Origin: Candidatus Krumholzibacteriota bacterium
GTDB taxonomy: Bacteria > Krumholzibacteriota > Krumholzibacteriia > JAJRXK01
Direction of reading: 5' to 3'
Length of the DNA stretch: 64,000 nucleotides
Assembly: GCA_024276305.1 (NCBI GenBank)
Contig: JAJRXK010000108.1
Span: 8,172 to 72,171, forward strand
Made by a program: the position numbers and the translations under genes
Shown here: one piece after another, positions 13,082 to 31,503 of the stretch
How positions within the stretch are numbered: the stretch's first letter is position 1
Layout: each line of letters starts with the position of its first letter
Notes under the pieces: model-generated
Seen by the model: the letters and a program-made list of their open reading frames with translations, nothing else
Told to the model about the DNA's origin: nothing
Databases searched by the model: none

Positions 13082-13220
13082 GGGGGATACCTCCCTGGGC
13101 CCAGAGGGCCATGAAACGACGAAAGCAAGCGCCCCAGCGAGGGGCGCCTGCTCTATGGAACAGCCTCGAAGCGGATCGCGCAAGGGCTTCTGCGCCGGAG
13201 AGGTGGCGATCCCCTCCGGC

Positions 13221-14347: not shown

Positions 14348-17300
14348 CTAGACTCTGCCGTCCCCGGAGGCAATGGCCCCGCGTCCGAGTCTCCGCCGCA
14401 GGCGGCTGGGGAGGTCGAGGAGATCCTCGAGGATCAAGTAGCCGGAGGGCACCAGGAGAAGGGTCACCACGGTGGAGAAGAGCACCCCGAAGGCCAGACT
14501 CACCGCCAGCGGAATCAGGAATCGGGCCTGCAGGCTGCGTTCGAGCAGGATCGGAGTGAGTCCGGCGAAGGTCGTGACCGAGGTCAGCAGGATGGCCCGG
14601 AAACGGGCCGCTCCGGCGCGGCGCACGGCTTCGTGCATGTCGACTCCCTCGCGGCGCCGGCGATTGACATAGTCGACGAGGACCAGGCTGTCGTTCACCA
14701 CCACGCCGGTCAGGGCCACCATTCCCACCACGCTCAACACGCTCAAGGACATGCCCATCAGGATGTGTCCCCAGATCGCGCCGACCAGTCCGAAGGGGAC
14801 TGCAGTCATGACCACCAGGGCGTGGAGGTAGGAGCGGAAGGGAATGGCCATCATGGCGTAGATCACCATCAGGATGACCGCAAATCCCCGGATCAGCCCG
14901 TGCATGGACTCGCGCTGCTCCTTCTGCTCGCCTTCGATGGTCCAGTTCACCCCCGGATGCCGAGCCAGGATTTCGGGGAGGTCCTTCGAGGTGAGCGATG
15001 CGATCACTTCGGTGGCATTGGCCACTGCGTCGTCGACGTCGGCGGTGACATTGATCACTCGCTGCCGCTGCACCCGGTGGATGGTGGAGAATCCCCGGCC
15101 GAGCTCCGCGCGGGCGACGCGGTACAGGGGGGCTTCGATGCCGCCGGGGAGACGGATGCGCAGCCCCCGCAAGTCCTCGAGACTTCGTCGTCGGGATTGG
15201 GGATAGCGCACCATGACCTTCACTTCGTCTCGTCCCCGCTGAATGCGCTGGGCTTCCGCTCCGTAGAACGCCTGCCGCACCTGGCGGGCCAGATCCGCTT
15301 GGGTCAGTCCCAGGAGTTCCCCCTCGGGCAGGATGTGGAGTTGGACCTCTTGCTTGCCCTGGCGGTAGTTGTCGCGGATGTCCTGCACGCCGGCATAGCC
15401 CGCGAGACGATCCTCGAGTTCCGTGGTCACCGCGGCCAGGGCGTCGAGGTCGTGGGAGGCGAGTTGAATGTCGATGGCCTCGCCGGCCCGGAAGAGCGAG
15501 GATCGGAAGGAGAGGGCGCTGGCTCCCGGAATCTCTCCGCAGCCTTCTCTCCACCGTCGGGCGATTTCGGCCGCGCTCACTTCTCGATCGGCAGAAGGCA
15601 CGAGTTCGAGAGTGACTTCGCCGAGATGCGACCCTTTGAAGTTCCCCTCGGGAGTTCCCATGGGCCCTCCGCTCTCGAGGGCGCTGGGTTGGTCGCCGAC
15701 CGCGGCGTAGGAGTGGAGGATCACCGCCTGGCCTCCGGCCTCCTCGGACAAGCTTCTCTGGAGGTCGGCGGCGACCTTCTCGAGCCGCTCGATGGCCGCG
15801 TTGGTGGCCGCCACCGGAGTCCCGAGGGGCATCTCCAGCGAAGCGGTGATCGATTCGGACTCGACCTCGGGCATGAAGGTGAACTTCAGGAATCCGCCCG
15901 CGACAGAGCCGGCGGTGAGCAGCACGGTGGCGACGCCCGCCGCCACCGCGGTGTAGCGCCATCGCAGACAGAGATCGAGGAAGGGCTGGTAGCGCTCGGC
16001 CACGAAGCGTTCGAGACCTCGGGCCACGGCCTCTTGAATCCGGTACCACCACTGCGTCAGGCCCCGGTGCGAGGGCTGGGTTGGGGACTTCATGTGCTTG
16101 AGATGGGCGGGCAGGATGAGTTGCGATTCGACCAAGGAGAAGATCAACACCGGAATCACGATCAGGGGAATCACTTTCCAGATCTTCCCGGTATTCCCGG
16201 GGATCATGGTCAGCGGGACGAAGGCGGCGACGGTGGTCAGCACTCCGAAGATCACCGGGGTGGCGACCTCTTGAGTTCCCTCGACGGCGGCGCGCACCGC
16301 GTCGCCGTGGCGGCGGTAGTGGGTATAGATGTTTTCGCCCACGACGATGGCATCATCGACCACGATTCCCAACACCAGGATGAAGGCGAAGAGGGTGATC
16401 AGATTGATGGTGACCCCGAGCACCGGCATCAGCCAGATCGCTCCCAAGAAGGACACCGGGATTCCCAGACTCACCCACAGGGCGAGGCGGAAGCGCAGGA
16501 AGAGAGCCAGTACCAGGAACACCAGTACGAGACCGGTCATTCCGTTGCGCAGGAGCAGATCCCGACGGCCCTTGAGGTGGACCGACATGTCGTTCCACAC
16601 CGTCATCTGGATGCCCTCGGGCAACCAGGTCGAGGCCTGGTCGATGTAGTCGTAGACCTTCGACGCGATGTCGATGGCATCTTCGTCGCCGACTCGGTAG
16701 ACCTGCACCATGACCGCACTCTGGTGGTCGAAGCGTGACGACTGATCGGTCTCAGCGAATCCATCGATGACCGTGGCGACCTCCGACAACCCCAGACGGC
16801 TGCCATCCGTCTCCTGCCGCACCGCGATTCGGTCGAAGTCCCGGCCCACGTAGGCTTGGCCCACGCTCCGCACCAAGATCTCGCCCCCTTCGGTCTTGAT
16901 GCTGCCGCCGGGGAGGTCCAAGGAAGAACTCCGCACCGCCTGGACCACTTCGTCGAAGCTCAGGCCCAGACGACGCATCTGACTTTCGCTCAGGGCGATG
17001 GTGATCTCGTAGGGCCGGGCGCTCACGAGGTCGACTTGGGAGATCCCGTCGATGAGAGCCAGCTCGTCACGGACCCTCTCGCCCAACTTCTTGATCGAGA
17101 CTTCGTCCGCCGGGCCGGAGATCGCGACGCTGAGCACCTGGCGTCGCACGACCAACTCGCCGATCACCGGCTTTTCGGCTTCCTCGGGAAAGGTGATGAT
17201 GGCGTCGACCCGGGTCTTCACGTCGTCGAGGACTCGGCGCAGGTCCTCGCCGGGTTTGACCTCGATGGTCACCACCCCGCGGCCCTCGTCGCTGCTCGAC

Positions 17301-17545
17301 CGGATCTCGTCGATGCCGTCCACCCCTTGGACCTGTTCTTCGATCTTGATGCAGATCGACTCCTCGACCTCCGAGGGAGTTGCCCCGGGATAGGGGACGG
17401 TGACCACCACCGCGTCGGCGGAGAATTCGGGGAAGATCTCCTGCCGCAGGGTGAACACCGTGGTCAGCCCCCCCGACAGGACCAGAATCATGAGCACATT
17501 GGCCGCGACGGAATTCTCGGCGAACCAGCGAACCACGCCCTTCAT
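14348..17545 (-). CDS. RND efflux permease (AcrB/HAE1-like)
   Basis: 12-TM RND architecture, about 1065 aa. ATG overlaps the upstream adaptor's stop (ATGA). Confidence 0.9.
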
Positions 17546-18705
17546 CGTTCCGACTCCCCGACCGGCTGAACTCGCATCGCTTCGACCACCGCGGAGAGGG
17601 GGGAGAGGCAAATGCGTTCGCCGTCTTCCAGCCCGCCGGCCAGGATCGTGTCCCTGCGGCCTCGCTGCAGGACTTCGACTTCGCGGATGTCGATGCGGTC
17701 CTGCGCATCCACGACCAGGACCGTGGAGTCGGGTCGAAGGGCGGCGGTGGGAATCCGGATCCCTTCGACCTCTCGTCCCAGGATCTCCGCTTGGACGAAC
17801 ATCCCCACCGCCAGGGGAGTGGTGGTGCCGGTGTTGCGCCCGTAGGGGTCGGCCACTCGCGCCACGAGGTGTACCATTCGGGTGCGGGAGTCGATTTCCG
17901 CTTCACTCCGCTCGATGAATCCTTCCCACTGCCCTTCCCGCTGGGCGAAGTTGCAGCGGAGCACCACTCTCGGGCCGTGGTCCCGAGGCTGGGCCCGGAA
18001 TCCCAGGGGCAGATCGAGGTAGGCCAGATCCGAGTCGGGGATCGGCAGGCGGATCTCCGCGTAGTCCACGGCGTAGACGGTCGCGGCCACCGTTCCCGGA
18101 GCCAGAACATCTCCCAGGTCGACATTCTTCGATCGGATTCGGCCGTCGTAGGGGGCCACGAGGCGACTGCGGTCGAGGTCGCGTCGGGCCTTGTCGACCA
18201 GGGTCTGGGCCGAGGCCACCGCGGCGCGGGCGGAGGCGAGCTGAGGCCGCCGGAGGACCAGATCCGAGGGAGGTCCGCCCTCGAAACTCTCCCACTCCTG
18301 TGCGGCCACGCTCCGTTCCTGGTCTTCGAGGGCCAGGCGAAGCTGGGCCGCCACCAGAGCCTCCTGGGCCTGGGCCAGGGTCACTCGCAGATCCCGATCG
18401 TCGAGGACCAGCAGAGTGTCTCCCTCTTCGAAGAAGGACCCGGGGCGGAAGTGGTCGCTCACGCGGACCACCCGTCCGCCGACTTCGGCCACCAGCCGGC
18501 TGGAGGTCCGAGGACTCACCGTGCCCTGAGTGCGAACGACCAAGCGGTGGGCTGCGAGGCGGACGGTCTGGACCTCCACTGAGGGAACCACTCGAGGACG
18601 GGGTTGGCGGTCGGGTTCGGCCCGTAGGCCGCGAAGCCCTCGCATTCCGAGCCCTCCGACCACGAGGATGAGGATGGGAAGCAGGAGAGGAAGGCGGCGT
18701 CTCAT
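17542..18705 (-). CDS. RND efflux periplasmic adaptor (membrane fusion protein)
   Basis: HlyD/MFP-like sequence. ATG preceded by GAGGTG. N-terminal anchor MRRRLPLLLPILILVV. Confidence 0.85.
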   Translation of the reverse strand: MRRRLPLLLPILILVVGGLGMRGLRGLRAEPDRQPRPRVVPSVEVQTVRLAAHRLVVRTQGTVSPRTSSRLVAEVGGRVVRVSDHFRPGSFFEEGDTLLVLDDRDLRVTLAQAQEALVAAQLRLALEDQERSVAAQEWESFEGGPPSDLVLRRPQLASARAAVASAQTLVDKARRDLDRSRLVAPYDGRIRSKNVDLGDVLAPGTVAATVYAVDYAEIRLPIPDSDLAYLDLPLGFRAQPRDHGPRVVLRCNFAQREGQWEGFIERSEAEIDSRTRMVHLVARVADPYGRNTGTTTPLAVGMFVQAEILGREVEGIRIPTAALRPDSTVLVVDAQDRIDIREVEVLQRGRRDTILAGGLEDGERICLSPLSAVVEAMRVQPVGESER

Positions 18706-18709
18706 GGAT

Positions 18710-20173
18710 TCACCTCGAAGTCGTGGAAGATGGGGAGGAAGTTGGCGGAGTCGGTGAGAGGCCTCCACCCAGGGCGACATGGAGGTCCACCCGTTGGCGG
18801 AGGCGCTGGGCTTCGAGAGAGACGAGTTGGGTCTCGGCCTCCAGGAACCGGCGCTGGGACTCCAACACCACCAGGAAATCTCCCACCCCGCGACGGTAGC
18901 GCGCTTCGGAGAGGTCGGCGGCCCGTCGGGCCGAGGCCGTGGCCCGACGGAGGGCCGCTTCCCGCGCGGCCAGGCCGGCCTCGGCGTCGAGGGCATTCTC
19001 GACTTCCTCGAAGGCCTGGAGGGCGGTGGTGGCGTATTGCTCCAGGCTCGCCCGCTGGGCCGCACGCTGAGCCTGGACTCGGGCCCGGAGACGTCCACCC
19101 TGGAAGAGGGGTTGGACCAGGTTTCCGGCGATCGACCAGATGGAGAAGTTGCCGTCGAGGAGGTCGGAGAGTTGGTCGCTGGTGGTTCCCACGCTGCTGC
19201 TCAGACTGAGGCGGGGCAGCAGGTCTCGGCGGGCCGCAGTCAGGAGGGCTCCACTGGCGGTCAGACGTCGTTCGGCCGCCACCAGATCCGGGCGCCGCAG
19301 GAGAAGATCCCCGGGCAACCCCGCGGGAGGAAGGGGCCGGAGGGGGGGAAGATCGCCATGCTCTTCGAGAGCGGCGCGAGGATAGCGGCCCAGCAGAATC
19401 TCCAGCTGCCGACGACTGCGGTCTTCGGCGGTCTGACGCTCCTCGAGGAGGGCCTGAGCCGAGGCCCATTGGGTGCGGGCCAGATGGAGGTCGAGGGAAG
19501 AGGTCAAGCCCCGTTCGTAACGAGACTGGGTGTGGCGAAGGGTCTGGGCGTAGGTCTCGACCGTGCGCTCTGCGAGTTCCCGCAGGCGACGACTCTCGAT
19601 CACCGCGGACCAGGCCCGGATGGACTGGGCCGCCACACTCAGACGCGCTCCTTCGAGGTCGGCCTGGCTGGCCTGCCACTGGGCGACCGAGGCCCGAGCC
19701 TGCTGGCCGAGCCGATTCCACAGGTCGATCTCCCAGGAGCTCTGCAATCCGAGGGAGTAGGAATTCGAAAGCGAAGATGCGGGACCCGGTCCCGGAAAGG
19801 GCAGACCCACGAAGATCTGCTTGCGCCGCGAGACCCCGGAGGTGGCCTCGAGTTGGGGCCAACGGCCGGCTCCGGCGATGGTCACATTGGCGCGGGCGGC
19901 CTCGACATTCGCGAGGGCGATGCCCACGCTGGGATTGTGAGCCAGAGCTTCCTCCACCACCGAATCGATGCGGGCATCGGCGAAGGCGGTCCACCAGGCT
20001 TCGGTCGGAGGAGGCAGAGGGAGGTCCCCCTCGGTGGAGGTCTCCCAGGCTTCGGGAATCTCCACTCGGTCTTGCAGGGTTGTGGGCCGCCCGGGTCCGG
20101 GTGCGGTCGCGCATCCCATTCCCACCGAGAGCAGAAGGGCTGCGACTACCCCTCGTGATAGGAGTCGTCTCAT
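18710..20173 (-). CDS. TolC/NodT-family efflux outer membrane factor
   Basis: Signal peptide, tandem TolC repeats. ATG preceded by GAGGTG. Confidence 0.85.
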   Translation of the reverse strand: MRRLLSRGVVAALLLSVGMGCATAPGPGRPTTLQDRVEIPEAWETSTEGDLPLPPPTEAWWTAFADARIDSVVEEALAHNPSVGIALANVEAARANVTIAGAGRWPQLEATSGVSRRKQIFVGLPFPGPGPASSLSNSYSLGLQSSWEIDLWNRLGQQARASVAQWQASQADLEGARLSVAAQSIRAWSAVIESRRLRELAERTVETYAQTLRHTQSRYERGLTSSLDLHLARTQWASAQALLEERQTAEDRSRRQLEILLGRYPRAALEEHGDLPPLRPLPPAGLPGDLLLRRPDLVAAERRLTASGALLTAARRDLLPRLSLSSSVGTTSDQLSDLLDGNFSIWSIAGNLVQPLFQGGRLRARVQAQRAAQRASLEQYATTALQAFEEVENALDAEAGLAAREAALRRATASARRAADLSEARYRRGVGDFLVVLESQRRFLEAETQLVSLEAQRLRQRVDLHVALGGGLSPTPPTSSPSSTTSR

Positions 20174-20796
20174 GCTTTCACCTCATCGGTGGCGGGAGCC
20201 TCGAATCCCGCCTCTACGAAGGCCAGAAGTCGCCGCAACTGTCGTTCGGGATCGGTGTCCCGAGAGCGGAGCTCCTCTGGTCCGGAGGGGACGGTGGAGT
20301 GCAGCATCGCGCCGATCATGAATCGAAAGCGCGCCTGGATCTCCTCGGGAGAGAGTTCGGGGCAGATGGGCAGGAGAATGCGGTAGCGCTCGATGACGGG
20401 GCCGAAGAGCCGGTCGAAGTGGCGGGTGGTGATGGCGCCGTCCTCGTGAAGGATGCGCGCCAGTCCCATCAGAATCCACGCGTCGACCCGGCGCAGTTGC
20501 TCCACGGCCGGTCGAAGGAAGGACTCCAGGACTCGGCGCAGGCTGGGAAGGGCCGGGGCCGCCTCTGCGATGGCCAAGTCCAGGCGGCGGATCCGCTCCT
20601 CGTTGATGGGGCCGATGCGTCGCTGGAACACCGCCTCGAGGAGATGTTCCTTCGAACCGAAGTGATAGTGGACGGCGGCCAGATTCACTTCCGCCGCCTC
20701 GGTGATCGCGCGCAGGGAGGCCCGATCGTATCCGTGCTCGGCGAAGAGTCGCTCGGCGTGGTCGAGGATCCTCTCGCGGGTATCGGGTCGGGGCAT
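20170..20796 (-). CDS. TetR/AcrR-family transcriptional regulator
   Basis: N-terminal HTH (ILDHAERLFAEHGYDRASLRAITEAAEVNLAAVHYHF). Its stop overlaps the downstream outer membrane factor's start. Confidence 0.85.
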   Translation of the reverse strand: MPRPDTRERILDHAERLFAEHGYDRASLRAITEAAEVNLAAVHYHFGSKEHLLEAVFQRRIGPINEERIRRLDLAIAEAAPALPSLRRVLESFLRPAVEQLRRVDAWILMGLARILHEDGAITTRHFDRLFGPVIERYRILLPICPELSPEEIQARFRFMIGAMLHSTVPSGPEELRSRDTDPERQLRRLLAFVEAGFEAPATDEVKA

Positions 20797-20934: not shown

Positions 20935-23900
20935 TCAGGGAGATCCGTCCTCCAACGGAAGCCCAAGAGCCCAAAGGAGTTGTGCTCGCCTTGACTGGAG
21001 TTGGGCCTGGGCCCGGACCCAGCGGCTCTCGGCCCGGGTGCGGGCCGTCTCGGCGTCGAGGAGGCGAGTCAGAGTGGCCCGGCCTTCGCGGTAACGGAGT
21101 TGGATCACCCGATAGGCTTCGGCCGCGGCCCGTCGGCCCTCAGAAGCCGCGGTCAGCTGGGCTTCGGCCGTCGAGAGGGCGGAACGGGCGACTTCGATCT
21201 GTCGGCGGATCTCGCGATCGCGGCGGCTTCGCTCGTACTCGGCCTGCCGGGCCCGGGCTCGGGCTCGGGCACTGCGGGCGGAGATCTCTCCCCCCGACCA
21301 CGGGGTCCAATGCAAACCGGCGGCGAGGTCCACCGAATCGTCCCGGAGTTGCGGGTCGGCCTCCGGCCAGAAGGTGCTCCATCGGGCATAGGCCACGACT
21401 TCGGGCCAACGCTCCCGGTGGGCGGCTTCGGCCTGGGCCTGGGCCCCGGCCAGTCGGTGGGTCGCGGCCTCGAGTTCCGGACGCCGCGGCGCCTTCACCC
21501 CGAGGGGCTCGGGGGGGACCATCACTTCGGAAGCTTCGGCCAGGGGGGGCAGCTCCTCGAGGGGGATCCCCAGGAGTTCGGCCAGGAAGGACCTCGCTTC
21601 CGTCCAGGCTCCGTGGGCCGCCACCCGAGCGGCGCGGACTTCGGCCGCCCGTGCTTCGAGCTGGAGGAGGTCGGCCTCGAGAGCTCTTCCGGCTTCGGCC
21701 CGCAGGCGGGCGTCGTCCACTTCGCCTTGGACCAGGGTCAACGCCGATTCCTGGACCCGCACTTCGGCCCGGGCCGACTGGACGAGGAAGTAGACTCGGG
21801 CCAGATCGACTTCGAGCTGTCGAGTGCGGGCTCGATGCAGAGCCTCTTCCGACTTCCATTGGAGGCGGGCCGCGCGAATCGAGGACTCGCGGGAAGCGCT
21901 GAAGATCTGCCAATCCGCTCGGGCCTCGCCGGTGATCAGATTCACGCTGGCATCGGGATCGAAGGCCAACAGATCCTCGGGGCCGCGGATGTCGCGGAGT
22001 TGCACTCCGAAACTCTGAGCGGGATCACTGGTGCGCAGGAAGTTTCCCGACACCGACAGGCGTGGCCAACGCGCGGCGCGAGCCAGCCCGTAGTCCGCCG
22101 ATGAGGCCTCGACCGCAGACTCGGAGATCGCCCACTGGGCGTTGTTCGCGCGCAGGTGCCCGAGGGCATCGTCCAGGCTCAGCTCGGTCGCCGTGGCCGG
22201 CACCGTCCCCCCCAAGGTCCACAGCCCGAGCAGTACTCCTGCGGTGGTGAGGCCTCCGAGCCGGCGTCGACGCCCGCGGCCGGCGACTTCGCGCCGCATG
22301 AATTCGAGGGTGAGTGCGGGCACCAGAACCAGCGTGACCACCGTCGAAGCTCCGAGCCCGCCGATGACCACCCAACCCAGGGGTCCCCACATCGATCCGC
22401 CGAAGAGGGTCAGGGGCAAGAGCCCCGCTTGCGTGGTGAGGGTGGTGAGAAGAATGGGCTGCAGTCGGGTCTGGGCTCCGCGGCGGACGGCCTCGGACAG
22501 TTCCATTCCCTCGCGCAGGTTCCGGCTGATGCGGTCCACGAGCACGATGGCGTCGTTGACCACGATGCCGGTCAACGCGAGGAGCCCGATGAAGGCGGTG
22601 AATCCGAACGGCCAGCCACTCACCAGCAGTCCGACCACCGCTCCCGCCAGCGCCACCGGGATGCTGGTGAAGATCACGAAGGGCAACTTGAAGGACGAGA
22701 ACTGCAGCACCAAAATGCCGTAGATGAGCCCCAGGGCGATGAGCACATTCTGGAGCATGCTCAGAAAGGCGCGATCGCGTTCCTCGTCTTCGCCGATCAC
22801 TTCCCAGGATTCGCGGCCGTCGAGGGGGAGCCCTTTGACGGTGGGCATGAGGTCGGCCACGATCTCCGTGGCCAACCGGCCATCGAGATCGGCCCCTACG
22901 ACCACCGATCGTTCGAGGTCGGTGTGCATGATCCGCGCATAGGTCGGCGCCAGCCGCGGGGAGCTCAGTGACGAGAGGGGAACCGGAGCCGAACCTGCCA
23001 CCGGAATCCGGATGCGGGCGAGGTCGTCGAAGCTCTCCCGACCCTCGGGGGCGACGCGGACCACGACGTCGATGTCCTCGTCCTGACGGCGCAGGGTCGT
23101 CGCCGTCGCCCCGGCCATGGCCACCCGGATCTCCGCCGCCACCATTGCGGTTTCCAACCCGGCGCGTTGGACCTTGACCGGGTCCAAGCGGAGGTCGAGG
23201 CGTGGCGGACCGGGTTTGAGATCGTGCGACACATTGATGGCGCCGGGAATCTCGTGTAGCGCGGCGGCGAGCTGGTCGGCGTGGGCCCGCAGGCGTTCGA
23301 GGTCGGGGCCCTTGAGGCGAATCGAGACCGGCATTCCCACCGGGGGACCCTGCACGAAGAGCTTGGTCTCGAGGTCCAGTTTCGGGTGCTGAGCGAAGGC
23401 GCGGCGGATCTCCCGGGCGAAGTCGGGGATCTCTTTCGACCGGGATCGGGGGACGGTGACCAGCAATTCGGCAAAGTTCGCCTGCTCGAAACTCCGAATG
23501 ATGTTGTAGTAGGTAAGGGGATTTCCCTTGCCCACGTTGGTGGTCACGTGCACCGCCATGTCCTGGGCGCGGACAAAGTTCTCGACTTCGATGGCGGCGG
23601 CTTCGGTGGCTTGGAAGTTCGTCGCCTGGGGAGTCTTCACTCGAATCAACAGCTGCGGTTTGTCGTCGGCCCTCGGGAAGAAATTGAATCCAACCTGAGT
23701 GCTGAGGGTCATCACCAGGGCCGACGCAACGAAGATGGTGAGAATGGTGGTCCGCGGCTTGCGGTCCAAGGTCTCCAGCACTCGAGCGTAGAAGCCCTGG
23801 GAGGCGAAGCGATTCAGCGCGGGTTGGAGCCCCTGCGGTCGGGCGGCCGCGTCGGTGGCGAAGAGGCGTGAGGCGATGAGTGGGGTCGCGAAGAGGGCCA

Positions 23901-25320
23901 CCGCCAGGCTGACGAGGAGCACCACCGAGACCACCGAGGGAATGTCGCGGGTGAAGTCTCCAACGGACCCGGCCATGAAGAGCATGGGCACGAAGGCCGC
24001 AATCGTGGTGGCCGTGCTGCTGGTGATGGCCGAGGCCACCTGCCCCGTGCCTTCGATGGCGGCGTCGCGGGCGCTGCGTCCCCGATGTCGTTCGTAGAGA
24101 ATCGCTTCGAAGACCACCACCGCATTGTCGACCAAGAGGCCCAGCACCACCACCAGACCGGCGATGGACATCTGCTGGAGAGAGATGCCGCAGGATTCGA
24201 GGAGCCAGAAGCTGATCCCGACGGCGAGGAACATGGCCGTGGAGGCTACCACCGCGGCGCGCCATCCCACGAGAAGGACGACGAAGAAGACGATGATCCC
24301 CGCGCCCTGGAAGAGGCTCATCCCGAAGGTCGACAGGCGGGCGTGCACGTCCTCGCTCTGATCGAGGACGATCTCGGCCTGGATGTGAGAGGGAAGACTC
24401 TTTCGAAAGTCGTCGAAGCGGTCGCGGGCGGACTCGGTCAGCGCGAAGACATTGCGGCCTTCCTTCAGAGTGGCAGTGACGAGAGTGGCCGGTCGGCCGT
24501 CTTGCCGGACCAAGTAGGTCGCATCTTCATATCCCCAGCTCACGGTGGCAAAGTCGCCGAGGCGCACCGGTCTTCCGTCCACGCTCCGCAGAACGGTGTC
24601 GCGAATCTGGTCGAGCGTCTCGAAACGCGAATTGGGCCGGATGCTCAACTTTCGGGGACCGGTCACCAGAGTGCCGCCGGGGAGGTCTCCGTTGGCCGAC
24701 GCGAGCGCGGCCATCACTCGTTGCAGGGTCAGCCCGGCGCTGGCCATTCGGGCGGGATTCACCAGCACTTGCACTTGGGTGTCCAATTCTCCTTCGACTC
24801 GGACTTCCTTGACGTCGGGCAGAGTGTTCCAACGGTCCTGGAGTTCTTCGGCCCAATCCCTGAGCTCTTCGGCGGTGGCGGTGGAGGAGGAGATCGCCGC
24901 CTGCAACACGGTGACCGAAGAGGGCTGGATCGAGCGCAGGGAGAGTTCGACCACTCCCTGCGGGAGGTCCGCCTGGACCGCGTTCACGCGCTGGACGAAT
25001 TCGTCGTAGGCATTCTCCTTGTCGGAATCATCCACCCATTCCGCGGTGATCACCGCTACACCGTCCGCCGCAATGGACTCGATGATCTCCACGTCCTCGA
25101 GTTCGTGGATGGATTCTTCGAGGGGCTCGAGCACGCGATTCTCGAGCTCCTCGGGGGTGGCTGCGGGATAGATCACGGTGACGATCCCGCCGAAGGAAGG
25201 CAGCTCCGGGTCTTCTTGCCGAGGCATCTTCAGAAAGCTCACCGCGCCCAGGACGACCGCGGCCAGGGTCAGGACGATGACGAAGCGGTAGTTGGCGAAA
25301 GCAAACCGGGTGGGATTCAT
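20935..25320 (-). CDS. Single 1461-codon ORF: RND permease (25320..22300) fused in-frame, with no stop, to a TolC-family outer membrane factor (22299..20935) that retains its own ATG and signal peptide
   Basis: The RND part ends ...LVPALTLEF. It is followed immediately by MRREVAGRGRRRRLGGLTTAGVLLGLWTLGGTVPATA|TELSLDD and TolC repeats to the stop at 20935. Confidence 0.8.
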   Translation of the reverse strand: MNPTRFAFANYRFVIVLTLAAVVLGAVSFLKMPRQEDPELPSFGGIVTVIYPAATPEELENRVLEPLEESIHELEDVEIIESIAADGVAVITAEWVDDSDKENAYDEFVQRVNAVQADLPQGVVELSLRSIQPSSVTVLQAAISSSTATAEELRDWAEELQDRWNTLPDVKEVRVEGELDTQVQVLVNPARMASAGLTLQRVMAALASANGDLPGGTLVTGPRKLSIRPNSRFETLDQIRDTVLRSVDGRPVRLGDFATVSWGYEDATYLVRQDGRPATLVTATLKEGRNVFALTESARDRFDDFRKSLPSHIQAEIVLDQSEDVHARLSTFGMSLFQGAGIIVFFVVLLVGWRAAVVASTAMFLAVGISFWLLESCGISLQQMSIAGLVVVLGLLVDNAVVVFEAILYERHRGRSARDAAIEGTGQVASAITSSTATTIAAFVPMLFMAGSVGDFTRDIPSVVSVVLLVSLAVALFATPLIASRLFATDAAARPQGLQPALNRFASQGFYARVLETLDRKPRTTILTIFVASALVMTLSTQVGFNFFPRADDKPQLLIRVKTPQATNFQATEAAAIEVENFVRAQDMAVHVTTNVGKGNPLTYYNIIRSFEQANFAELLVTVPRSRSKEIPDFAREIRRAFAQHPKLDLETKLFVQGPPVGMPVSIRLKGPDLERLRAHADQLAAALHEIPGAINVSHDLKPGPPRLDLRLDPVKVQRAGLETAMVAAEIRVAMAGATATTLRRQDEDIDVVVRVAPEGRESFDDLARIRIPVAGSAPVPLSSLSSPRLAPTYARIMHTDLERSVVVGADLDGRLATEIVADLMPTVKGLPLDGRESWEVIGEDEERDRAFLSMLQNVLIALGLIYGILVLQFSSFKLPFVIFTSIPVALAGAVVGLLVSGWPFGFTAFIGLLALTGIVVNDAIVLVDRISRNLREGMELSEAVRRGAQTRLQPILLTTLTTQAGLLPLTLFGGSMWGPLGWVVIGGLGASTVVTLVLVPALTLEFMRREVAGRGRRRRLGGLTTAGVLLGLWTLGGTVPATATELSLDDALGHLRANNAQWAISESAVEASSADYGLARAARWPRLSVSGNFLRTSDPAQSFGVQLRDIRGPEDLLAFDPDASVNLITGEARADWQIFSASRESSIRAARLQWKSEEALHRARTRQLEVDLARVYFLVQSARAEVRVQESALTLVQGEVDDARLRAEAGRALEADLLQLEARAAEVRAARVAAHGAWTEARSFLAELLGIPLEELPPLAEASEVMVPPEPLGVKAPRRPELEAATHRLAGAQAQAEAAHRERWPEVVAYARWSTFWPEADPQLRDDSVDLAAGLHWTPWSGGEISARSARARARARQAEYERSRRDREIRRQIEVARSALSTAEAQLTAASEGRRAAAEAYRVIQLRYREGRATLTRLLDAETARTRAESRWVRAQAQLQSRRAQLLWALGLPLEDGSP

Positions 25321-26414
25321 CGCTGCACCTCGTCGACGATCCGAAGTGCATCGCCCTCTCGGAGAGTGTCGGGAGCGTGGTCGACGACCCGGTCGCCGGC
25401 CCGGATTCCCGCGAGGATCTCGACCCAGTCACCGCGGACGGGTCCGGTCTGGACCTTCAGGCGGTGGATTCGACCCCCCTCGATTCTCCACACGCTCGCT
25501 CCGTCGTCTCCGATGCGGAGGGCGGAGAGGGGCAGGACCACCCGGGAGGCTTCGGCCGAGGTAGGGGAGGTGAATTCGACTTGGGCCACCAAGCCGGGGA
25601 GGAGGGATCGCTGCGCATTGTCGACCACCACTCGCAGGAGAACGGCCCCCGACCGCGGATCGCTCTCGAGGGGCGGATGGTCCACGCGGCCGGTGGCGGC
25701 GCCGACCCCCGGAACCACGACCTGGACCGCCGCATCGAGGTCGATGCTTCCGAGGTCGCCGGCGGCCACCGCCAGGTCGACTTCGAGCTCGTCGGTGGCG
25801 ATGACTTCGAAGGCCACCGCGCCCGGAGCGACCACCTCGCCGCTCTCCACCAGGCGCCGGCGGACCCATCCGCCGAAGGGAGCGCGGAGTTGGGACCGAT
25901 CGATCCTCCACTGGGCCAGACGAAGGGTGGCCCGTGCGGCCCGCACTTCGGCCTCCTGCCCGTCGAATTCTTCGTCGGAGAGGGCCTTCTGGTCCTTGAG
26001 ACGGCGGCTGCGTTGGAGACTCTTCTCCAGATAGTCGGTACGCGCCTTTGCCCGGGCGACCGCCGTTTCGAAGGGCACCGGGTCCAGCCGAGCCAGCACC
26101 TCTCCGGCTCCGACCTCTTGGCCCTCGTCGAAGGTCCATTCGGCGATCACCCCGTCGACGGCGAAGGAGAGCGTGGCCCGTCGGCGCGCACGCAGAGTCC
26201 CGTCGGCGGTGAGTGGGGAGGTCGAGGCTCTGTCTCTGAGAGCCTCGGCTCGGACGACTCGAAGGGCTCGGGGGGCCGGGGACTGATCCGGGGAGGCCGC
26301 GGCGGAGGGCATTCCACCGCAGGCGCCGAGGCTCAGGAGGAGGAGAGTCGAGACGGTCAGGCCGGCCTGCCTTCGGATTCCGGGGCGGATCGGAGTTGGG
26401 TCGAATGTGGACAT
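25317..26414 (-). CDS. RND efflux periplasmic adaptor (lipoprotein MFP)
   Basis: MSTFD...LLLLSLGACGG lipobox. HlyD-like sequence. Its stop overlaps the RND start. Confidence 0.85.
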   Translation of the reverse strand: MSTFDPTPIRPGIRRQAGLTVSTLLLLSLGACGGMPSAAASPDQSPAPRALRVVRAEALRDRASTSPLTADGTLRARRRATLSFAVDGVIAEWTFDEGQEVGAGEVLARLDPVPFETAVARAKARTDYLEKSLQRSRRLKDQKALSDEEFDGQEAEVRAARATLRLAQWRIDRSQLRAPFGGWVRRRLVESGEVVAPGAVAFEVIATDELEVDLAVAAGDLGSIDLDAAVQVVVPGVGAATGRVDHPPLESDPRSGAVLLRVVVDNAQRSLLPGLVAQVEFTSPTSAEASRVVLPLSALRIGDDGASVWRIEGGRIHRLKVQTGPVRGDWVEILAGIRAGDRVVDHAPDTLREGDALRIVDEVQR

Positions 26415-26456
26415 CGGAGAAATTCCTTGGGGAGGGGAGTGGGACGACAAGTGTCT

Positions 26457-26529: not shown

Positions 26530-27195
26530 TCAGGAAGAAGGGGGGGAGGTCGCGATGCCTCGCATGAAGACCTCGATGGCGTGCTCGAGGTATTCGAGGT
26601 CACGGTCTTCGCAGCCCTCCACGAGTCCACACTCGAGGAGGTGGGAGCCCTTGCTCATGTGCCACATGAGGCAGATGTCAACGAAGGTCTTGACCACGAA
26701 TCCGGGATCGAGCTCGGGACGGATGAAACCCGCCGCCTGCCCTTCGGCGATGCGTTGGGCGCCGAGGACCTCGAGTTCCGCACCGAGCTCTCGCTTGTGG
26801 ACGAGAGGCTTGTCCTTCCATCCCTGATTCGCCATCCACCAGGCCAGAAGGCGGGGGACGTGGGGGTTCTCCTTCAGGAAGTGGAAGTAGAGCCGGATGG
26901 CCTGTTCGAGCAAATCGGGGCCCACCTCCTGGGCCCCCGACAGCATCGCCATCATCCCATCGAAGTAGGGAGCGAAGACCTCTTCCATGACCGCGTCGAA
27001 GAGATCCTGCTTGCCTTCGAAGTAGTGGTAGATGAGTCCCTGAGGGACTTCGGCCTTGGTGGCGATGATCCCGGTCCGAGCTCCAGTGAAACCGTGCTCG
27101 ACGAACTCGGCCCGGGCTGCCGACAGGATCGCGGCGCGGGTCCGCTCGGGATCCCGACTTCGGTTCCTGGAGGGGTGGGGTTTCGTCAAGGCCAT
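26530..27195 (-). CDS. TetR-family transcriptional regulator
   Basis: HTH (ILSAARAEFVEHGFTGARTGIIATKAEVPQGLIYHYF). ATG at 27195. Confidence 0.85.
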   Translation of the reverse strand: MALTKPHPSRNRSRDPERTRAAILSAARAEFVEHGFTGARTGIIATKAEVPQGLIYHYFEGKQDLFDAVMEEVFAPYFDGMMAMLSGAQEVGPDLLEQAIRLYFHFLKENPHVPRLLAWWMANQGWKDKPLVHKRELGAELEVLGAQRIAEGQAAGFIRPELDPGFVVKTFVDICLMWHMSKGSHLLECGLVEGCEDRDLEYLEHAIEVFMRGIATSPPSS

Positions 27196-27232
27196 CTCCT
27201 GGGGTTCTGCGGACGGGGCCAAGGTAGCGTTA

Positions 27233-27246
27233 ACTGAACGATCAGT
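27233..27246. promoter_or_regulatory. Near-palindrome ACTGAACGATCAGT, candidate TetR operator in divergent promoter
   Basis: 12/14 symmetric. Half-sites are identical to the 26457 site. Confidence 0.45.
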
Positions 27247-27359
27247 CAATACCTCTGGTTGCATTTTGGGGGGCGGCGGGTGGAGTCTCCGTCCTTCTCA
27301 GTCCTGGAGGGCTGCCGTATCTTGCCGCCGGAGCAGGATCGCCCCGGCCGGAGACCCGC

Positions 27360-28448
27360 ATGCGCCTTTTTCGTGACCTGTTGAACTTGGCCAGTGCGGC
27401 AGCGGTGGCGGGGATGCTTCTCTGGGTCTTCGGCGCCGAATTCGCGAATTCGGTGGCTCCCTATCCCTTCGATGAAACGATCGGACGTCACCTGCCCGCC
27501 CCGGGATCGAGCCTTCGTTTCCGGACCGAAGGTTGGGCGACCACCCACTATGCCGAGCACGGCTTGTTGGCGGTGGACGTCGAGGCCCTCGCCTCTCGGC
27601 CCGACACCCTTCCGCCCCCGATCCTCGTCGGAGTGTGGGGAGACTCCTTCGTGCAGGGGGTCCACGTCGACGACGGGATGAAGTTCAGTAGCCAGTTCCG
27701 TCGGCTCCTGGGCGACGACTCGGAGGTCGCGTTGGTTGCGATCGGCCAGCCGGGTTGGGATGTCACCGATGTGGTCGACCTCGTCGACCGATACGAGGCC
27801 CTCTACGACTTCGAGGCTCAGCTCCTCGTGCTTCACGACCTCTTCGACTTCTCCCCCAACGAAGAGACCTTCGTGACCGATCCCGCCTTTCGCTTCGTGT
27901 CCCGCGAGCGCCACCCTCCGGCCCCGCGCCTGCGGTCGCGGTTGGCCGCGCTGCGCTTGGACTTCGTGTGGGTCTCCTGGGAACGCCTGTTCCTGGCCCA
28001 CCGCAATCCCGTCGGGGGCGCGCCCCTGCGTTGGAGGCCCGGTCCGGTCCCGTCGACCGCCAAGACCTGGCCGAGTTGGACCCAACTCGAGGAGGTGTCG
28101 CCTGCGGCCTGGGACTTTGCCCTCGACCGTCTCGTCGGCAGTTCGCAACGACGGTGGACCATCGTCTACATCCCGAGAATCCCCTTCTTCGACGGAGGTC
28201 GGGTGCAGCTTGAAGAGCCTGCGGTGGGGATCGTGCGACGCTTCGCCGAACACTGCTCGGCGCGCGGCGTGGAGTTCGTCGATCTCTCGGACCGACTGAA
28301 AGCCTTCTACCTCGACCGCGGACGCTCCGCCTTCGGCTTCGACAACGGCCAGGTGGGTCGCGGCCACCTCAATGCCGATGGCCATCGCATTCTGGCCGAG
28401 GCCCTGGTCGAGTGGAGCCGTGAGCAGGGCTTCGGGGTGGACGACTAG
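27360..28448 (+). CDS. Membrane-anchored SGNH/GDSL-type esterase-acyltransferase domain protein (DltD/AlgJ/PatB-like)
   Basis: N-terminal TM. VGVWGDSFVQG (GDS motif). Located immediately upstream of an MBOAT gene. Confidence 0.65.
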   Translation: MRLFRDLLNLASAAAVAGMLLWVFGAEFANSVAPYPFDETIGRHLPAPGSSLRFRTEGWATTHYAEHGLLAVDVEALASRPDTLPPPILVGVWGDSFVQGVHVDDGMKFSSQFRRLLGDDSEVALVAIGQPGWDVTDVVDLVDRYEALYDFEAQLLVLHDLFDFSPNEETFVTDPAFRFVSRERHPPAPRLRSRLAALRLDFVWVSWERLFLAHRNPVGGAPLRWRPGPVPSTAKTWPSWTQLEEVSPAAWDFALDRLVGSSQRRWTIVYIPRIPFFDGGRVQLEEPAVGIVRRFAEHCSARGVEFVDLSDRLKAFYLDRGRSAFGFDNGQVGRGHLNADGHRILAEALVEWSREQGFGVDD

Positions 28449-28452
28449 CGCC

Positions 28453-29868
28453 ATGCTCTTCACTCGACTCGAATTCTTCGGGCTCCTGGCCTTCACCCTC
28501 GTCTTCTTGTACCGGGTCGGGTCGGCCCGCCTGCGAAAGCTCTACCTCCTCGCCGCCAGCTACTACTTCTACGCCTTCTGGGATTGGCGATTCTTGGCTC
28601 TGCTGATGGCTTCCACCCTCTGCGATTTCGGAGTGGGTCGCGCCCTCTCTCGCTGCGACCGGTCTCGGGTGCGGCGGGCCTGGTTGACCCTCAGTCTGGT
28701 CGCGAACCTGGGCATCCTGGGTTTCTACAAGTACTTCGACTTCTTCGTGGTCGAGCTTTCGCGCCTGACCGGCGGGTGGGATCCGGGCTCTCACCTCCTG
28801 GGACTCGTGTTGCCGATCGGCATTTCCTTCTACACCTTCCAAACCCTCAGCTACACCATCGATGTGTATCGAGGGCGATTGCAACCCACGTCCTCCTTCA
28901 CGGATTTTGCACTCTACGTGGCGTTCTTTCCCCAGCTCGTCGCCGGACCGATCGTGCGTGCGCGGGAGTTGCTGCCTCAACTCGCCGAGAATCGTCACCC
29001 CTCCCGTGATCGCCTCTTCGCCGGGGCGCAGACTTTCGTGTTCGGATTCTTCAAGAAGGTCTTCATCGCCGATCGGGTGGCGGTATTCGTCGACGGAGTC
29101 TTCGCCGACGCGGGAGCCTTCGACGCGGTGACCACCTGGCTCGCGGTCCTCGCCTATGCGGTACAGATCTACTGCGATTTCTCCGGCTACTCGGACATGG
29201 CGATCGGGACCGCTCGGATGCTCGGCTACGACTTCGCCGAGAACTTCCGTCACCCCTACCTCGCACGGAGCCTGTCCGAGTTCTGGCGCCGGTGGCACAT
29301 CTCTCTCTCCACGTGGTTGCGCGACTATCTCTACCTTCCCCTGGGGGGCAGTCGCGGGGGTCGCCTCTTCACCTTTCGGAATCTGGGAATCACCATGGTG
29401 TTGGGAGGACTGTGGCACGGGGCGGCTCTGCACTTCATGGCCTGGGGCGTGTGGCACGGGGTGGCTCTCGCGGTCGAACGTGCGGTCGCACCGCGACTCC
29501 TCGGGGGGGCTTCGATGTCGCGACGAATTCCACCCCGGCTGATCTCGGTCGCGAGTTGGGGAGTGACGACTCTGGTGGTGGTCGTGGGGTGGGTCTTCTT
29601 CCGCGCGACGGATTTTCCCGCCGCGGGACGCCTTCTCTCGGCCATGGTCGGCCACAGTGGGGGTGGGTTGCGATGGATTCATCCCTTCGCGGCCGCCGCG
29701 CTTCTGATGGTGGCGATGTGGCACCTGTGGTGGGCGATGGGTCCCGAGCGCTGGCGTCCTCCCCTGGCGCAGAATTGGGCGACCGCGCTATGGCTCTGCT
29801 TCTTGGTGGGTCTGTGCTTCGCCTATCCTCCTCGAGATCCCAATCCCTTCCTCTATTTTCAGTTCTAG
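28453..29868 (+). CDS. MBOAT-family membrane-bound O-acyltransferase (AlgI/DltB/PatA-like)
   Basis: Multi-TM. Conserved His region (WHISLSTWLRDYLYLPLGG, WHGA). Confidence 0.85.
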   Translation: MLFTRLEFFGLLAFTLVFLYRVGSARLRKLYLLAASYYFYAFWDWRFLALLMASTLCDFGVGRALSRCDRSRVRRAWLTLSLVANLGILGFYKYFDFFVVELSRLTGGWDPGSHLLGLVLPIGISFYTFQTLSYTIDVYRGRLQPTSSFTDFALYVAFFPQLVAGPIVRARELLPQLAENRHPSRDRLFAGAQTFVFGFFKKVFIADRVAVFVDGVFADAGAFDAVTTWLAVLAYAVQIYCDFSGYSDMAIGTARMLGYDFAENFRHPYLARSLSEFWRRWHISLSTWLRDYLYLPLGGSRGGRLFTFRNLGITMVLGGLWHGAALHFMAWGVWHGVALAVERAVAPRLLGGASMSRRIPPRLISVASWGVTTLVVVVGWVFFRATDFPAAGRLLSAMVGHSGGGLRWIHPFAAAALLMVAMWHLWWAMGPERWRPPLAQNWATALWLCFLVGLCFAYPPRDPNPFLYFQF

Positions 29869-29986: not shown

Positions 29987-30649
29987 ATGTCCTCCGAAAA
30001 GGACCCGACACACTCGGACGGGGTGGTCGTACCAGGGAATGGAGGTTCCGCGCCGCAGGCGGCGAGGAGCTCCGCGTCGGAGTTGGCCCCGCCCAGCCGC
30101 GAGGAACTGCTCCGGGTACGAGACCGCGAAGAGGCTGCCCTCGGTCGATTCTTCGATCGCTACTTCTCGCACGTCTACGGCTTGGTCCGTCGACTCCTGC
30201 GCGATGAGACGCTCGCCGAAGATGCCACCCAGGAAGTCTTCCTCAAGGTCCACCGAGCCATCGACCGCCTGGATCCCGAGAGAGATCCTGCGCCCTGGTT
30301 GACCACGATTGCCTACAACGTGTGTCGTGATCGCTGGCGCTCGTCGGCCGACAAGATGGATCGGCAGTCCTCGTCCATCGAGGACCAGCCCGGACTCTCC
30401 AATCGTCTCGGGGACAGCCGGTCGACTCCGGAAGAGGACGCGTTGGCCCACGAGCGGCAGCGATTGGTCCAAGAGGCCATCTCGCGCCTGCCCGAGCCCC
30501 AGCGCGAAGTGGTGGTGTTGCATGACTACGAGGGAATGACCCACGACGAGATCGCGCAGATGGTGGGGGCGAGCCACGCGGCGATCCGCAAACGATACTC
30601 GCGCGCGTTGAACGCGCTGGCCGACCTCCTGAAGGAAACGCTGGGATGA
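29987..30649 (+). CDS. RNA polymerase sigma-70 factor, ECF subfamily
   Basis: Sigma-2 region (FFDRYFSHVYGLVRRLL...DATQEVFLKV) and sigma-4 region (VVVLHDYEGMTHDEIAQMVG). Confidence 0.85.
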   Translation: MSSEKDPTHSDGVVVPGNGGSAPQAARSSASELAPPSREELLRVRDREEAALGRFFDRYFSHVYGLVRRLLRDETLAEDATQEVFLKVHRAIDRLDPERDPAPWLTTIAYNVCRDRWRSSADKMDRQSSSIEDQPGLSNRLGDSRSTPEEDALAHERQRLVQEAISRLPEPQREVVVLHDYEGMTHDEIAQMVGASHAAIRKRYSRALNALADLLKETLG

Positions 30650-31503
30650 GCTCACAAGATCCGATCCGCAACGACCCCGACTCTGCGTTGAGCCCAGCGC
30701 AGCTTCGGGTGCAGGCGCTTCTGCGGTCTACCGAGGCACCGGCGGCGCGCGAAGATTTCCGCATTCGACTTCGCCAACGTTTTTCGAGTGGAGACTTCGA
30801 GGTCGGGGAGGATCTCCGATCGTCCGGCGCAGCTCGGCCTTCCCCGGCTCCTCGGAGTCGGTGGAAACTGCGATACGGGGTGCCCCTGGCGGCTGCGGCA
30901 GCCGTGGTCCTCATGTTCTCCCTCTGGAATCCAGGGACGACCTGGGAGGTCATGAGCGTGGCCGCGAATACCGCGCACGTGAACCTCGACGGAGAAGAAT
31001 TCTCCTGCGACGACCTCAGCCTCATTCAGGCGGCTCTGCATCCAGGCTGCAAGATCGAGGTTCCCGAAGGTGGGCAGATAGAGATCCTCGATCAGGGGAA
31101 ACTCGTCCTCCAGCTCAATGGCTCGGTGGCGGTCACCCTTCCTTCGCTTCCGTTTCGCTGGTTCGGGAGCACCCTCGAGTCGGTCTTCACCGGGCGGGGC
31201 ACTCTGCGGGTGGCGACCGCGGAGCAATTCGCCGGGACCCGCTATCGTCTGCGGTCGGCGGGAGTCGATCTCGAGGTCACGGGAACGACCTTCGCGGTGA
31301 TCCAGACCGAAGACGAGACCTGCATTTGTGTCCTCGATGGTGAAGTCGTGGCGACCCTGCCGGACGGATCCAAACGCTCCGTCTCCGGCGGGCGGCGCCT
31401 GACCATCCGGCGTGCCAGCGGACAGATCGAGGAGGGCGAGATGCATCCGGAGGAGCGGAGCCAGCTCCGCGAGCTGCGAATGCGGACGGACCACATCAGC
31501 TGA
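30646..31503 (+). CDS. Anti-sigma factor (single-pass, FecR-like periplasmic domain)
   Basis: ATGA overlap with the sigma-factor gene. One TM (LAAAAAVVLMFSLW). FecR-like C-terminal domain. Confidence 0.65.
   Translation: MSSQDPIRNDPDSALSPAQLRVQALLRSTEAPAAREDFRIRLRQRFSSGDFEVGEDLRSSGAARPSPAPRSRWKLRYGVPLAAAAAVVLMFSLWNPGTTWEVMSVAANTAHVNLDGEEFSCDDLSLIQAALHPGCKIEVPEGGQIEILDQGKLVLQLNGSVAVTLPSLPFRWFGSTLESVFTGRGTLRVATAEQFAGTRYRLRSAGVDLEVTGTTFAVIQTEDETCICVLDGEVVATLPDGSKRSVSGGRRLTIRRASGQIEEGEMHPEERSQLRELRMRTDHIS

Follow-up and report, generated by a model that had tools for sequence, protein, structure and literature searches.

The gene under study lies at positions 20935..25320 of the minus strand in a stretch of 64,000 nucleotides from a Candidatus Krumholzibacteriota bacterium (the window, meaning the whole of this stretch). 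In a single open reading frame (ORF) it encodes an inner-membrane efflux permease of the resistance-nodulation-division (RND) type joined to an outer membrane factor (OMF) of the TolC type. This RND::OMF fusion is an old, conserved family, kept under purifying selection across Krumholzibacteriota/Eisenbacteria, and not a recent or unique stop-codon loss. Judging from the junction between the two parts, we consider it likely that the OMF part of the polyprotein is exported via Sec by a thirteenth hydrophobic segment and that the chain is cut by signal peptidase I after A1044.

The ORF starts with an ATG and encodes 1461 amino acids followed by a stop codon. The preliminary description of this DNA had claimed one uninterrupted frame of 1461 codons for an RND permease and a TolC-family protein, with an ATG right after ...LTLEF and no stop codon at the junction. 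The ORF listing and the Pfam and NCBIfam matches confirm the frame, and the minus strand across the junction indeed reads ...CTC ACC CTC GAA TTC ATG CGG CGC..., free of stops, with M1008 at 22299..22297. The RND permease part comprises residues 1-1007 (22300..25320, minus strand) and contains 12 transmembrane (TM) helices, the last of which, TM12, ends in ...LVPALTLEF. The junction, which resembles an internal signal peptide or a thirteenth TM segment, takes up residues 1008-1044 (22189..22299, minus strand), and residues 1045-1461 (20938..22188, minus strand) form the predicted mature TolC-type OMF of 417 amino acids, with no lipobox Cys. Across the junction the protein reads ...LVPALTLEF/MRREVAGRGRRRRLGGLTTAGVLLGLWTLGGTVPATA/TELSLDDALGHLR..., the OMF part opening with TELSLDD.

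Both parts are matched over their length by established profiles. The Pfam family ACR_tran (PF00873; profile length 1021 positions) matches residues 6-1003 with an E value of 5e-172, and the NCBIfam model RND_permease_2 scores 477 bits over residues 15-1003, below its 1250-bit subfamily cut-off. The permease part is full-length RND by profile, yet belongs to none of the named NCBIfam subfamilies. In RND permeases a charged motif in TM4, DD in AcrB, serves as proton relay; here TM4 reads GLLVDNAVVV, and D398 and N399 do not vary across the 24 aligned family sequences, giving D-N where AcrB has DD. In the C-terminal part, two OEP repeats (PF02321, E value of 2e-44 in Pfam) extend to residue 1449, and the NCBIfam TolC-family model TIGR01844 matches residues 1047-1453. 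A frame of 1461 codons together with two full-length domain matches far exceeds chance. The true start of the gene at 25320 is preceded by GAGGTG 8 nt upstream and overlaps the stop codon of the adaptor gene as ATGA. A protein identical to that of the window (P0001) is present in the NCBI-derived protein collection.

A search of 5.8 billion proteins with the full-length query returned about 22 full-length fusion homologues of 1458-1517 amino acids with 47-84% identity over 99-100% of the query; they originate from four independent collections, namely, NCBI, JGI, ENA, and Logan assemblies. The named carriers among them are Candidatus Eisenbacteria and Krumholzibacteriia, and the JGI annotation of some reads "AcrB/outer membrane protein TolC." The 84%-identical copy is found on the JGI metagenome contig L003 in the gene order TetR-MFP-fusion-TetR-OMF-MFP-RND (MFP, periplasmic adaptor), as in the window, and the loci of the homologues P0012, P0018, and P0006 show the same operon. 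Codon differences between the window and L003 are predominantly silent, with 367 synonymous and 129 non-synonymous differences in the RND part and 160 synonymous and 90 non-synonymous differences in the OMF part; in addition, one indel of a single codon (3 nt) falls within the junction and preserves the frame. When bacterial genomes were scanned with one genome per species (GTDB representatives), a junction-spanning match was obtained in six metagenome-assembled genomes (MAGs) only, and all six are open across the junction; five of them are named Krumholzibacteriota, Krumholzibacteriia, or Eisenbacteria, and one is unclassified. At ...TLEF, where the preliminary description had suggested that orthologues be compared, the same fusion is thus conserved as a family, which makes it real and not unique.

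One relative lacks the second part. P0024, encoded on a JGI contig of 4304 nt, is an unfused RND permease of 1042 amino acids, 55% identical, which ends 35 residues past TM12 without a hydrophobic tail and is followed by a gene on the opposite strand. In a neighbour-joining tree of the RND part, which is rough, carries no support values, and includes top hits only, P0024 nests inside the fused clade, and it has probably lost the OMF part secondarily. With the OMF part as the sole query, a word-indexed search returned only standalone OMFs with at most 32% identity and did not return the fused family, so queries with the OMF module can overlook such fusions. An EcoRI site, GAATTC, immediately precedes the internal ATG (22297..22305 region) and resembles a cloning scar; the L003 metagenome copy has the same CTCGAATTCATG, and the site is therefore natural.

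The junction is composed of an n-region, MRREVAGRGRRRR, an h-region, L1021-G1038, and a c-region, TVPATA, with an A-x-A site; written as the parts of a Sec signal, it consists of the basic RREVAGRGRRRR, the hydrophobic LGGLTTAGVLLGLWTLGG, and TVPATA/T. A basic n-region, a hydrophobic h-region, and small residues at positions -3 and -1, which define the layout of a Sec signal peptide, are all found in the junction. Because 1007 residues precede the segment in the chain, it differs from a classical signal peptide, which is N-terminal. With the (-3,-1) site judged by eye and by a simple rule, the cut is predicted between A1044 and T1045; an uncut chain joins ...TVPATATELSLDDALGHLR across this site.

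The n/h/c design is constant in all 51 fused proteins that we examined, close and distant ones included, while the junction sequence itself is barely conserved. A median of 4 Lys/Arg residues precedes the hydrophobic stretch in these proteins, Lys/Arg outnumber Asp/Glu there in 41 of the 51, and the uncharged hydrophobic stretch has a median length of 22 residues, c-region included. A strict A-x-A occurs near the end of the stretch in 33 of the 51 junctions; by eye, a different small-x-small site can be made out in most of the remainder. In the family alignment, 2-9 Lys/Arg precede a hydrophobic stretch of 16-36 uncharged residues, and the small-x-small variants comprise PATA, SAAA, PAGA, PASA, PAPA, PARA, PVSA, and others, with Pro frequent at positions -4 to -6. 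Within the window's core clade, the H1 motif of the OMF (LxLxxxL) begins 1-4 residues past the small-x-small site (by eye). The export signals of OMFs end in a signal peptidase I site in TolC-type proteins and carry a lipobox Cys in NodT/OprM-type proteins, and standalone OMF homologues show the same layout and spacing at their N-termini as the junction does, e.g., MRGLLLRQLVVAGVFIAASTPGRA/EKLEFKQCV. In three homologues, P0017, P0021, and P0022, the hydrophobic segment is separated from the OMF fold by 40-60 additional residues rich in Pro, Ser, and Ala; these residues are possibly a spacer, or a tether if the chain is uncleaved.

An AlphaFold2 monomer model of residues 975-1461 reached a mean predicted local distance difference test score (pLDDT) of 82.6, and values above 85 were obtained for most of the OMF part. 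In this model, the TM12 helix continues into the basic stretch, and residues 1013-1043 have pLDDT values below 50, a frequent result for signal peptides and linkers. The TolC-type fold becomes ordered from L1047 onwards, two residues past the predicted cut, and its elements follow each other as in TolC, in the order H1-H2-S1-S2-H3-H4-H6-S4-S5-H7-H8, including two helices of about 66 residues. Foldseek comparison with the PDB retrieved OprN, CusC, OprM, SilC, TolC, and VceC, with E values as low as 6e-20, and the top 38 matches have target-normalised TM-scores of 0.70-0.81; by sequence, the best solved relative in the PDB is OprM, with an E value of 8e-10. By this structural model, the C-terminal part is a complete TolC-type OMF.

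The TetR-MFP-RND::OMF operons of L002, L003, and L085 have no separate OMF gene. In the window, too, the cognate adaptor gene directly adjoins the permease gene, as is characteristic of tripartite RND operons, and the best explanation of this arrangement is that two genes, those of the adaptor and of the fusion, suffice for a complete tripartite RND efflux pump, which otherwise takes three.

AcrB-type permeases have both termini in the cytoplasm, and with the C-terminus of the permease on that side, a thirteenth TM segment is needed to place the OMF part in the periplasm. According to the route that we propose, the 12-TM permease would insert in the inner membrane with its C-terminus cytoplasmic, the basic stretch RREVAGRGRRRR would be kept inside, and L1021-G1038 would span the membrane N-in/C-out as the thirteenth TM segment, thereby initiating the passage of the OMF part through Sec. 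Cleavage by signal peptidase I after A1042-T1043-A1044 would follow, and the freed 417-residue OMF would take the usual chaperone/BAM route to the outer membrane and trimerise there, while the permease would retain an extra C-terminal helix (helix 13). This route is favoured because the small-x-small site sits where the OMF fold begins and because the operons have no separate OMF gene, including those of an independent clade in Geomonas with the order MFP-RND::OMF-TetR. The preliminary description had suggested that a stop-codon loss created a polyprotein processed at an internal signal peptide; of this, the polyprotein stands as the best-supported reading, with cleavage as its predicted part, and the recent or unique loss gives way to a conserved family. 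As to what the arrangement might offer, we can only speculate that it secures 1:1 synthesis of the two trimeric partners and delivers the OMF beside its pump.

Several points weigh against processing by signal peptidase. The cleavage is one that we infer from the junction sequence, and AlphaFold yields no confident structure for the junction. The hydrophobic stretch measures 18 residues here and is longer in some relatives, which is towards the upper end of the range for cleaved signal peptides, and it could instead act as a signal anchor. An A-x-A triplet is not rare by chance in Ala-rich proteins, and the strict form is missing in 18 of the 51 junctions. Moreover, outer-membrane proteins are normally exported post-translationally, and we know of no demonstration that a 417-residue beta-barrel precursor can be exported when it trails a 12-TM protein inserted co-translationally.

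If the hydrophobic segment were a permanent thirteenth TM helix (signal anchor), the fusion would remain uncleaved and the OMF covalently bound to the permease, an alternative that we regard as unlikely. It would account for the length of the uncharged stretch, which including the c-region comes to 25 residues here and up to 36-47 in relatives and is long for a signal peptide, and the 40-60 extra residues in P0017, P0021, and P0022 might act as a tether. In the AlphaFold2 model of the window protein, however, the OMF fold begins two residues past the segment, and the N-terminus of TolC-type proteins is situated in the equatorial domain, about 65 Å above the periplasmic tip, as estimated from the helix lengths (H2, 22 residues; H3, 66 residues). 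Since the periplasmic head of an RND permease measures about 70 Å, at least about 130 Å would have to be bridged with 2 residues, which renders an uncut tether geometrically implausible. A chain that is never cut would also leave unexplained why a small-x-small site is conserved at the right spacing across unrelated fusion clades. Such a never-cut chain spanning both membranes would be a single-chain trans-envelope pump subunit, for which a non-canonical assembly geometry would be required, and we hold it to be very improbable. A milder version is conceivable, in which cleavage occurs and the retained thirteenth helix is a built-in, AcrZ-like accessory helix on the permease.

Two further explanations were considered. 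In one of them, independent initiation at M1008 (22297..22299, minus strand) would make an OMF precursor and the read-through fusion would be a by-product; this we deem highly doubtful. The in-frame ATG does stand exactly ahead of the n-region in the window and in L003, and in several relatives there is a Met where TM12 ends (LMERR). Yet no GGAG, GAGG, AGGA, or GGTG occurs in the 16 nt before the internal ATG, whereas the true start has GAGGTG, and no motif of the Shine-Dalgarno type precedes it in L003 either, in agreement with the preliminary description, which had noted the lack of such an element. With no stop codon at the junction, termination-reinitiation coupling is not available, and the open frame has been kept across more than 50% sequence divergence. 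That the factor has kept an ATG of its own, as had been claimed, did not survive the comparison. A Met at this position is present only in P0001 (window) and P0002 (the 84% relative) of the 22 fusions, others having Glu, Leu, or Ile nearby; it is missing in most family members and in the distant fusion clades; L005 and L006 have no ATG ahead of the hydrophobic core; and some members have no possible start codon there. Because the Met is unconserved, these two loci lack the ATG, and a consistent Shine-Dalgarno-like site was found at no locus, internal initiation is not the general route, and on this comparison of sequences the internal ATG is incidental. The other explanation, in which a normal stop is masked by an error in sequencing or assembly or has recently been lost in one strain, has a negligible probability. 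Typical operons encode both proteins as separate adjacent genes, and the unfused P0024 exists, which would be in keeping with it; however, the same junction is found in independent NCBI, JGI, ENA, and Logan assemblies at 47-84% full-length identity, it takes substitutions and a 3-nt indel with the frame intact, and unfused permeases mostly end 4-40 residues after TM12 without the hydrophobic tail. The masked stop that the preliminary description had considered is refuted by the L003 junction with its synonymous differences and its indel, by more than 20 homologues, and by the six genomes. An error or a one-off stop loss was rejected, as homologues, syntenic loci, and species-representative genomes are all open across the junction. 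The polyprotein with the proposed processing by signal peptidase I is thus the reading that we retain.

Fusions of this kind are also found well beyond the window's clade. When the C-terminal 761 residues were run with HMMER exhaustively against 1.84 billion cluster representatives, the scan detected, in addition to that clade, about 20 more full-length proteins of 1432-1529 amino acids and several fragments, with both parts matching at 24-32% identity. Their carriers include Geomonas anaerohicana (WP_199387283.1), G. azotofigens (WP_216510920.1), Persicobacter psychrovividus (WP_338399011.1), a member of the Chitinispirillaceae (MBN1600892.1), one of the Myxococcales (HJL43199.1), and one of the Armatimonadota (MCX6366557.1), and the only annotation that these proteins carry is "efflux RND transporter permease subunit." The distant fusions share the junction design, as seen in ...RKNSRKKPAPNAALLLPLLLLAPATAQA/QTLTIDEA and ...KTRAARRALGKQAAVAAALVGMVLLAGGREASA/EPVRQSLTLSQAV. 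In the cultured bacterium Geomonas anaerohicana (GCA_016458305.1, locus L084, 5001..9425), a fusion of 1474 amino acids is encoded in an MFP-fusion-TetR operon, which makes it a convenient experimental system; the cultured carriers in Geomonas and Persicobacter allow direct tests.

Altogether, about 51 of the 268 proteins retrieved are fused, and the unfused permeases mostly terminate 4-40 residues after TM12 without a hydrophobic tail. The tree contains 11 maximal all-fused clades, three of which are the window's own family, split by the unfused P0024, and parsimony requires at least 10 changes between the fused and the unfused state. Most of the distant fused clades lie nearer to an unfused permease than to another fused clade. 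The distant fusions are spread over about 8-11 separate clades of this RND tree. On these grounds, the RND::OMF fusion probably arose repeatedly and independently.

Compared to AcrAB-TolC, MexAB-OprM, and CusCBA, the system in the window has the same components, i.e., an adaptor, a 12-TM RND permease, and an OMF with the TolC fold (trimeric in the known pumps), and it is likewise encoded in a TetR-regulated operon. Taken singly, each part is an ordinary representative of its family, and the pump would work as AcrAB-TolC does. It differs in that the permease and the OMF are one polypeptide with an internal signal-peptide-like segment, in that two genes take the place of three, and in that the permease would end in a thirteenth TM helix. 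The fusions of distant bacteria have the same architecture and junction design, and the one of Geomonas also follows the two-gene operon logic, but they are only 24-32% identical to the query and fall into separate RND clades interleaved with unfused permeases. The searchable part of a 2021 Chem Rev review (PMC8277102) makes no mention of natural RND-OMF fusions, and we found no paper describing them, including a survey of outer-membrane protein fusions (PMC4827864), although such absence is not proof. The fusion is therefore best described as an apparently undescribed, recurrent way of building a known machine, not as a new machine.

The nearest precedent is a fusion of cytochrome b and cytochrome c1 (FbcH) in Bradyrhizobiaceae, which is mentioned in PMC4986455. 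Like the protein studied here, FbcH of Bradyrhizobium joins a polytopic inner-membrane protein to an in-frame partner bound for the periplasmic side, but its partner stays anchored in the inner membrane as part of the same complex, and there is no sequence relationship between the two systems. The FbcH polyprotein is reportedly split at an internal signal peptide (work attributed to Thony-Meyer et al., about 1991). Unlike in FbcH, the released beta-barrel would here have to cross the periplasm and insert in a different membrane. Within the RND superfamily, the SecDF fusion of Thermus is described in PMC8277102. It resembles our case in that normally separate components are found in one chain, and it differs in that these are two halves of one inner-membrane protein and the chain is uncleaved. 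AcrA-AcrB fusions, in turn, are artificial constructs used for cryo-EM. Neither SecDF nor the AcrA-AcrB constructs join proteins of two different membranes.

The general view is that beta-barrel proteins of the outer membrane leave the cytoplasm as separate precursors. In the present case the outer-membrane channel forms the tail end of an inner-membrane transporter with 12 TM helices, an arrangement that has long been kept and, as it appears, has been invented anew in several phyla. Should processing take place as we propose, the polyprotein would be a natural test of co-translational export of an outer-membrane protein behind a polytopic membrane protein and a genetic means of fixing a 1:1 ratio of pump and duct, and it would predict RND permeases with a thirteenth helix. 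Furthermore, pipelines label the fusions only as "RND permease," so their OMF is overlooked in counts of efflux systems in genomes and metagenomes.

The operon of the fused gene is headed by a TetR-family regulator gene (26530..27264, minus strand; Pfam TetR_N and TetR_C_21), which holds the same position in L001, L002, L003, and L085. Between it and the fused gene lies the gene of the periplasmic adaptor (25317..26414, minus strand; 365 amino acids), matched by the NCBIfam model TIGR01730 (RND_mfp) with an E value of 2e-56, scored on the longer frame 25317..26450. Its ATG at 26414 is preceded by AAGGAA, its orthologues in L002 and L003 also have 365 amino acids, and the adaptor is a probable lipoprotein on account of the motif LLLLSLGAC.

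Directly downstream of the fused gene, a second and conventional efflux operon (14348..20796, minus strand) encodes a TetR regulator, an OMF, an adaptor, and an RND permease. Its TetR gene (20170..20796, minus strand) matches TetR_C_30, its OMF (18710..20173, minus strand) is a NodT-type lipoprotein with the lipobox VGMGC, and its RND permease gene lies within 14348..17611 on the same strand, with the adaptor placed between it and the OMF in the order given. Fused and conventional operons stand side by side in L002, L003, and L085 as well, which points to a long co-existence of the two systems.

Scans of the whole window for tRNA genes and Rfam families detected no tRNA gene and no family at the gathering threshold. 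On the other side of the operon, genes for a GDSL-like acylhydrolase and an MBOAT O-acyltransferase (27360..29868, plus strand) separate the TetR gene from a pair encoding an extracytoplasmic function (ECF) sigma factor and a FecR-like protein (29987..31503); in L003 the sigma factor pair adjoins the TetR gene, without the acylhydrolase and O-acyltransferase genes. Farther downstream, at 11708..13183 on the minus strand, a gene encodes an outer-membrane protein with an OMP beta-barrel domain, a thrombospondin type 3 repeat, and a C-terminal OmpA domain, from which it follows that the organism has a diderm envelope with an outer membrane.

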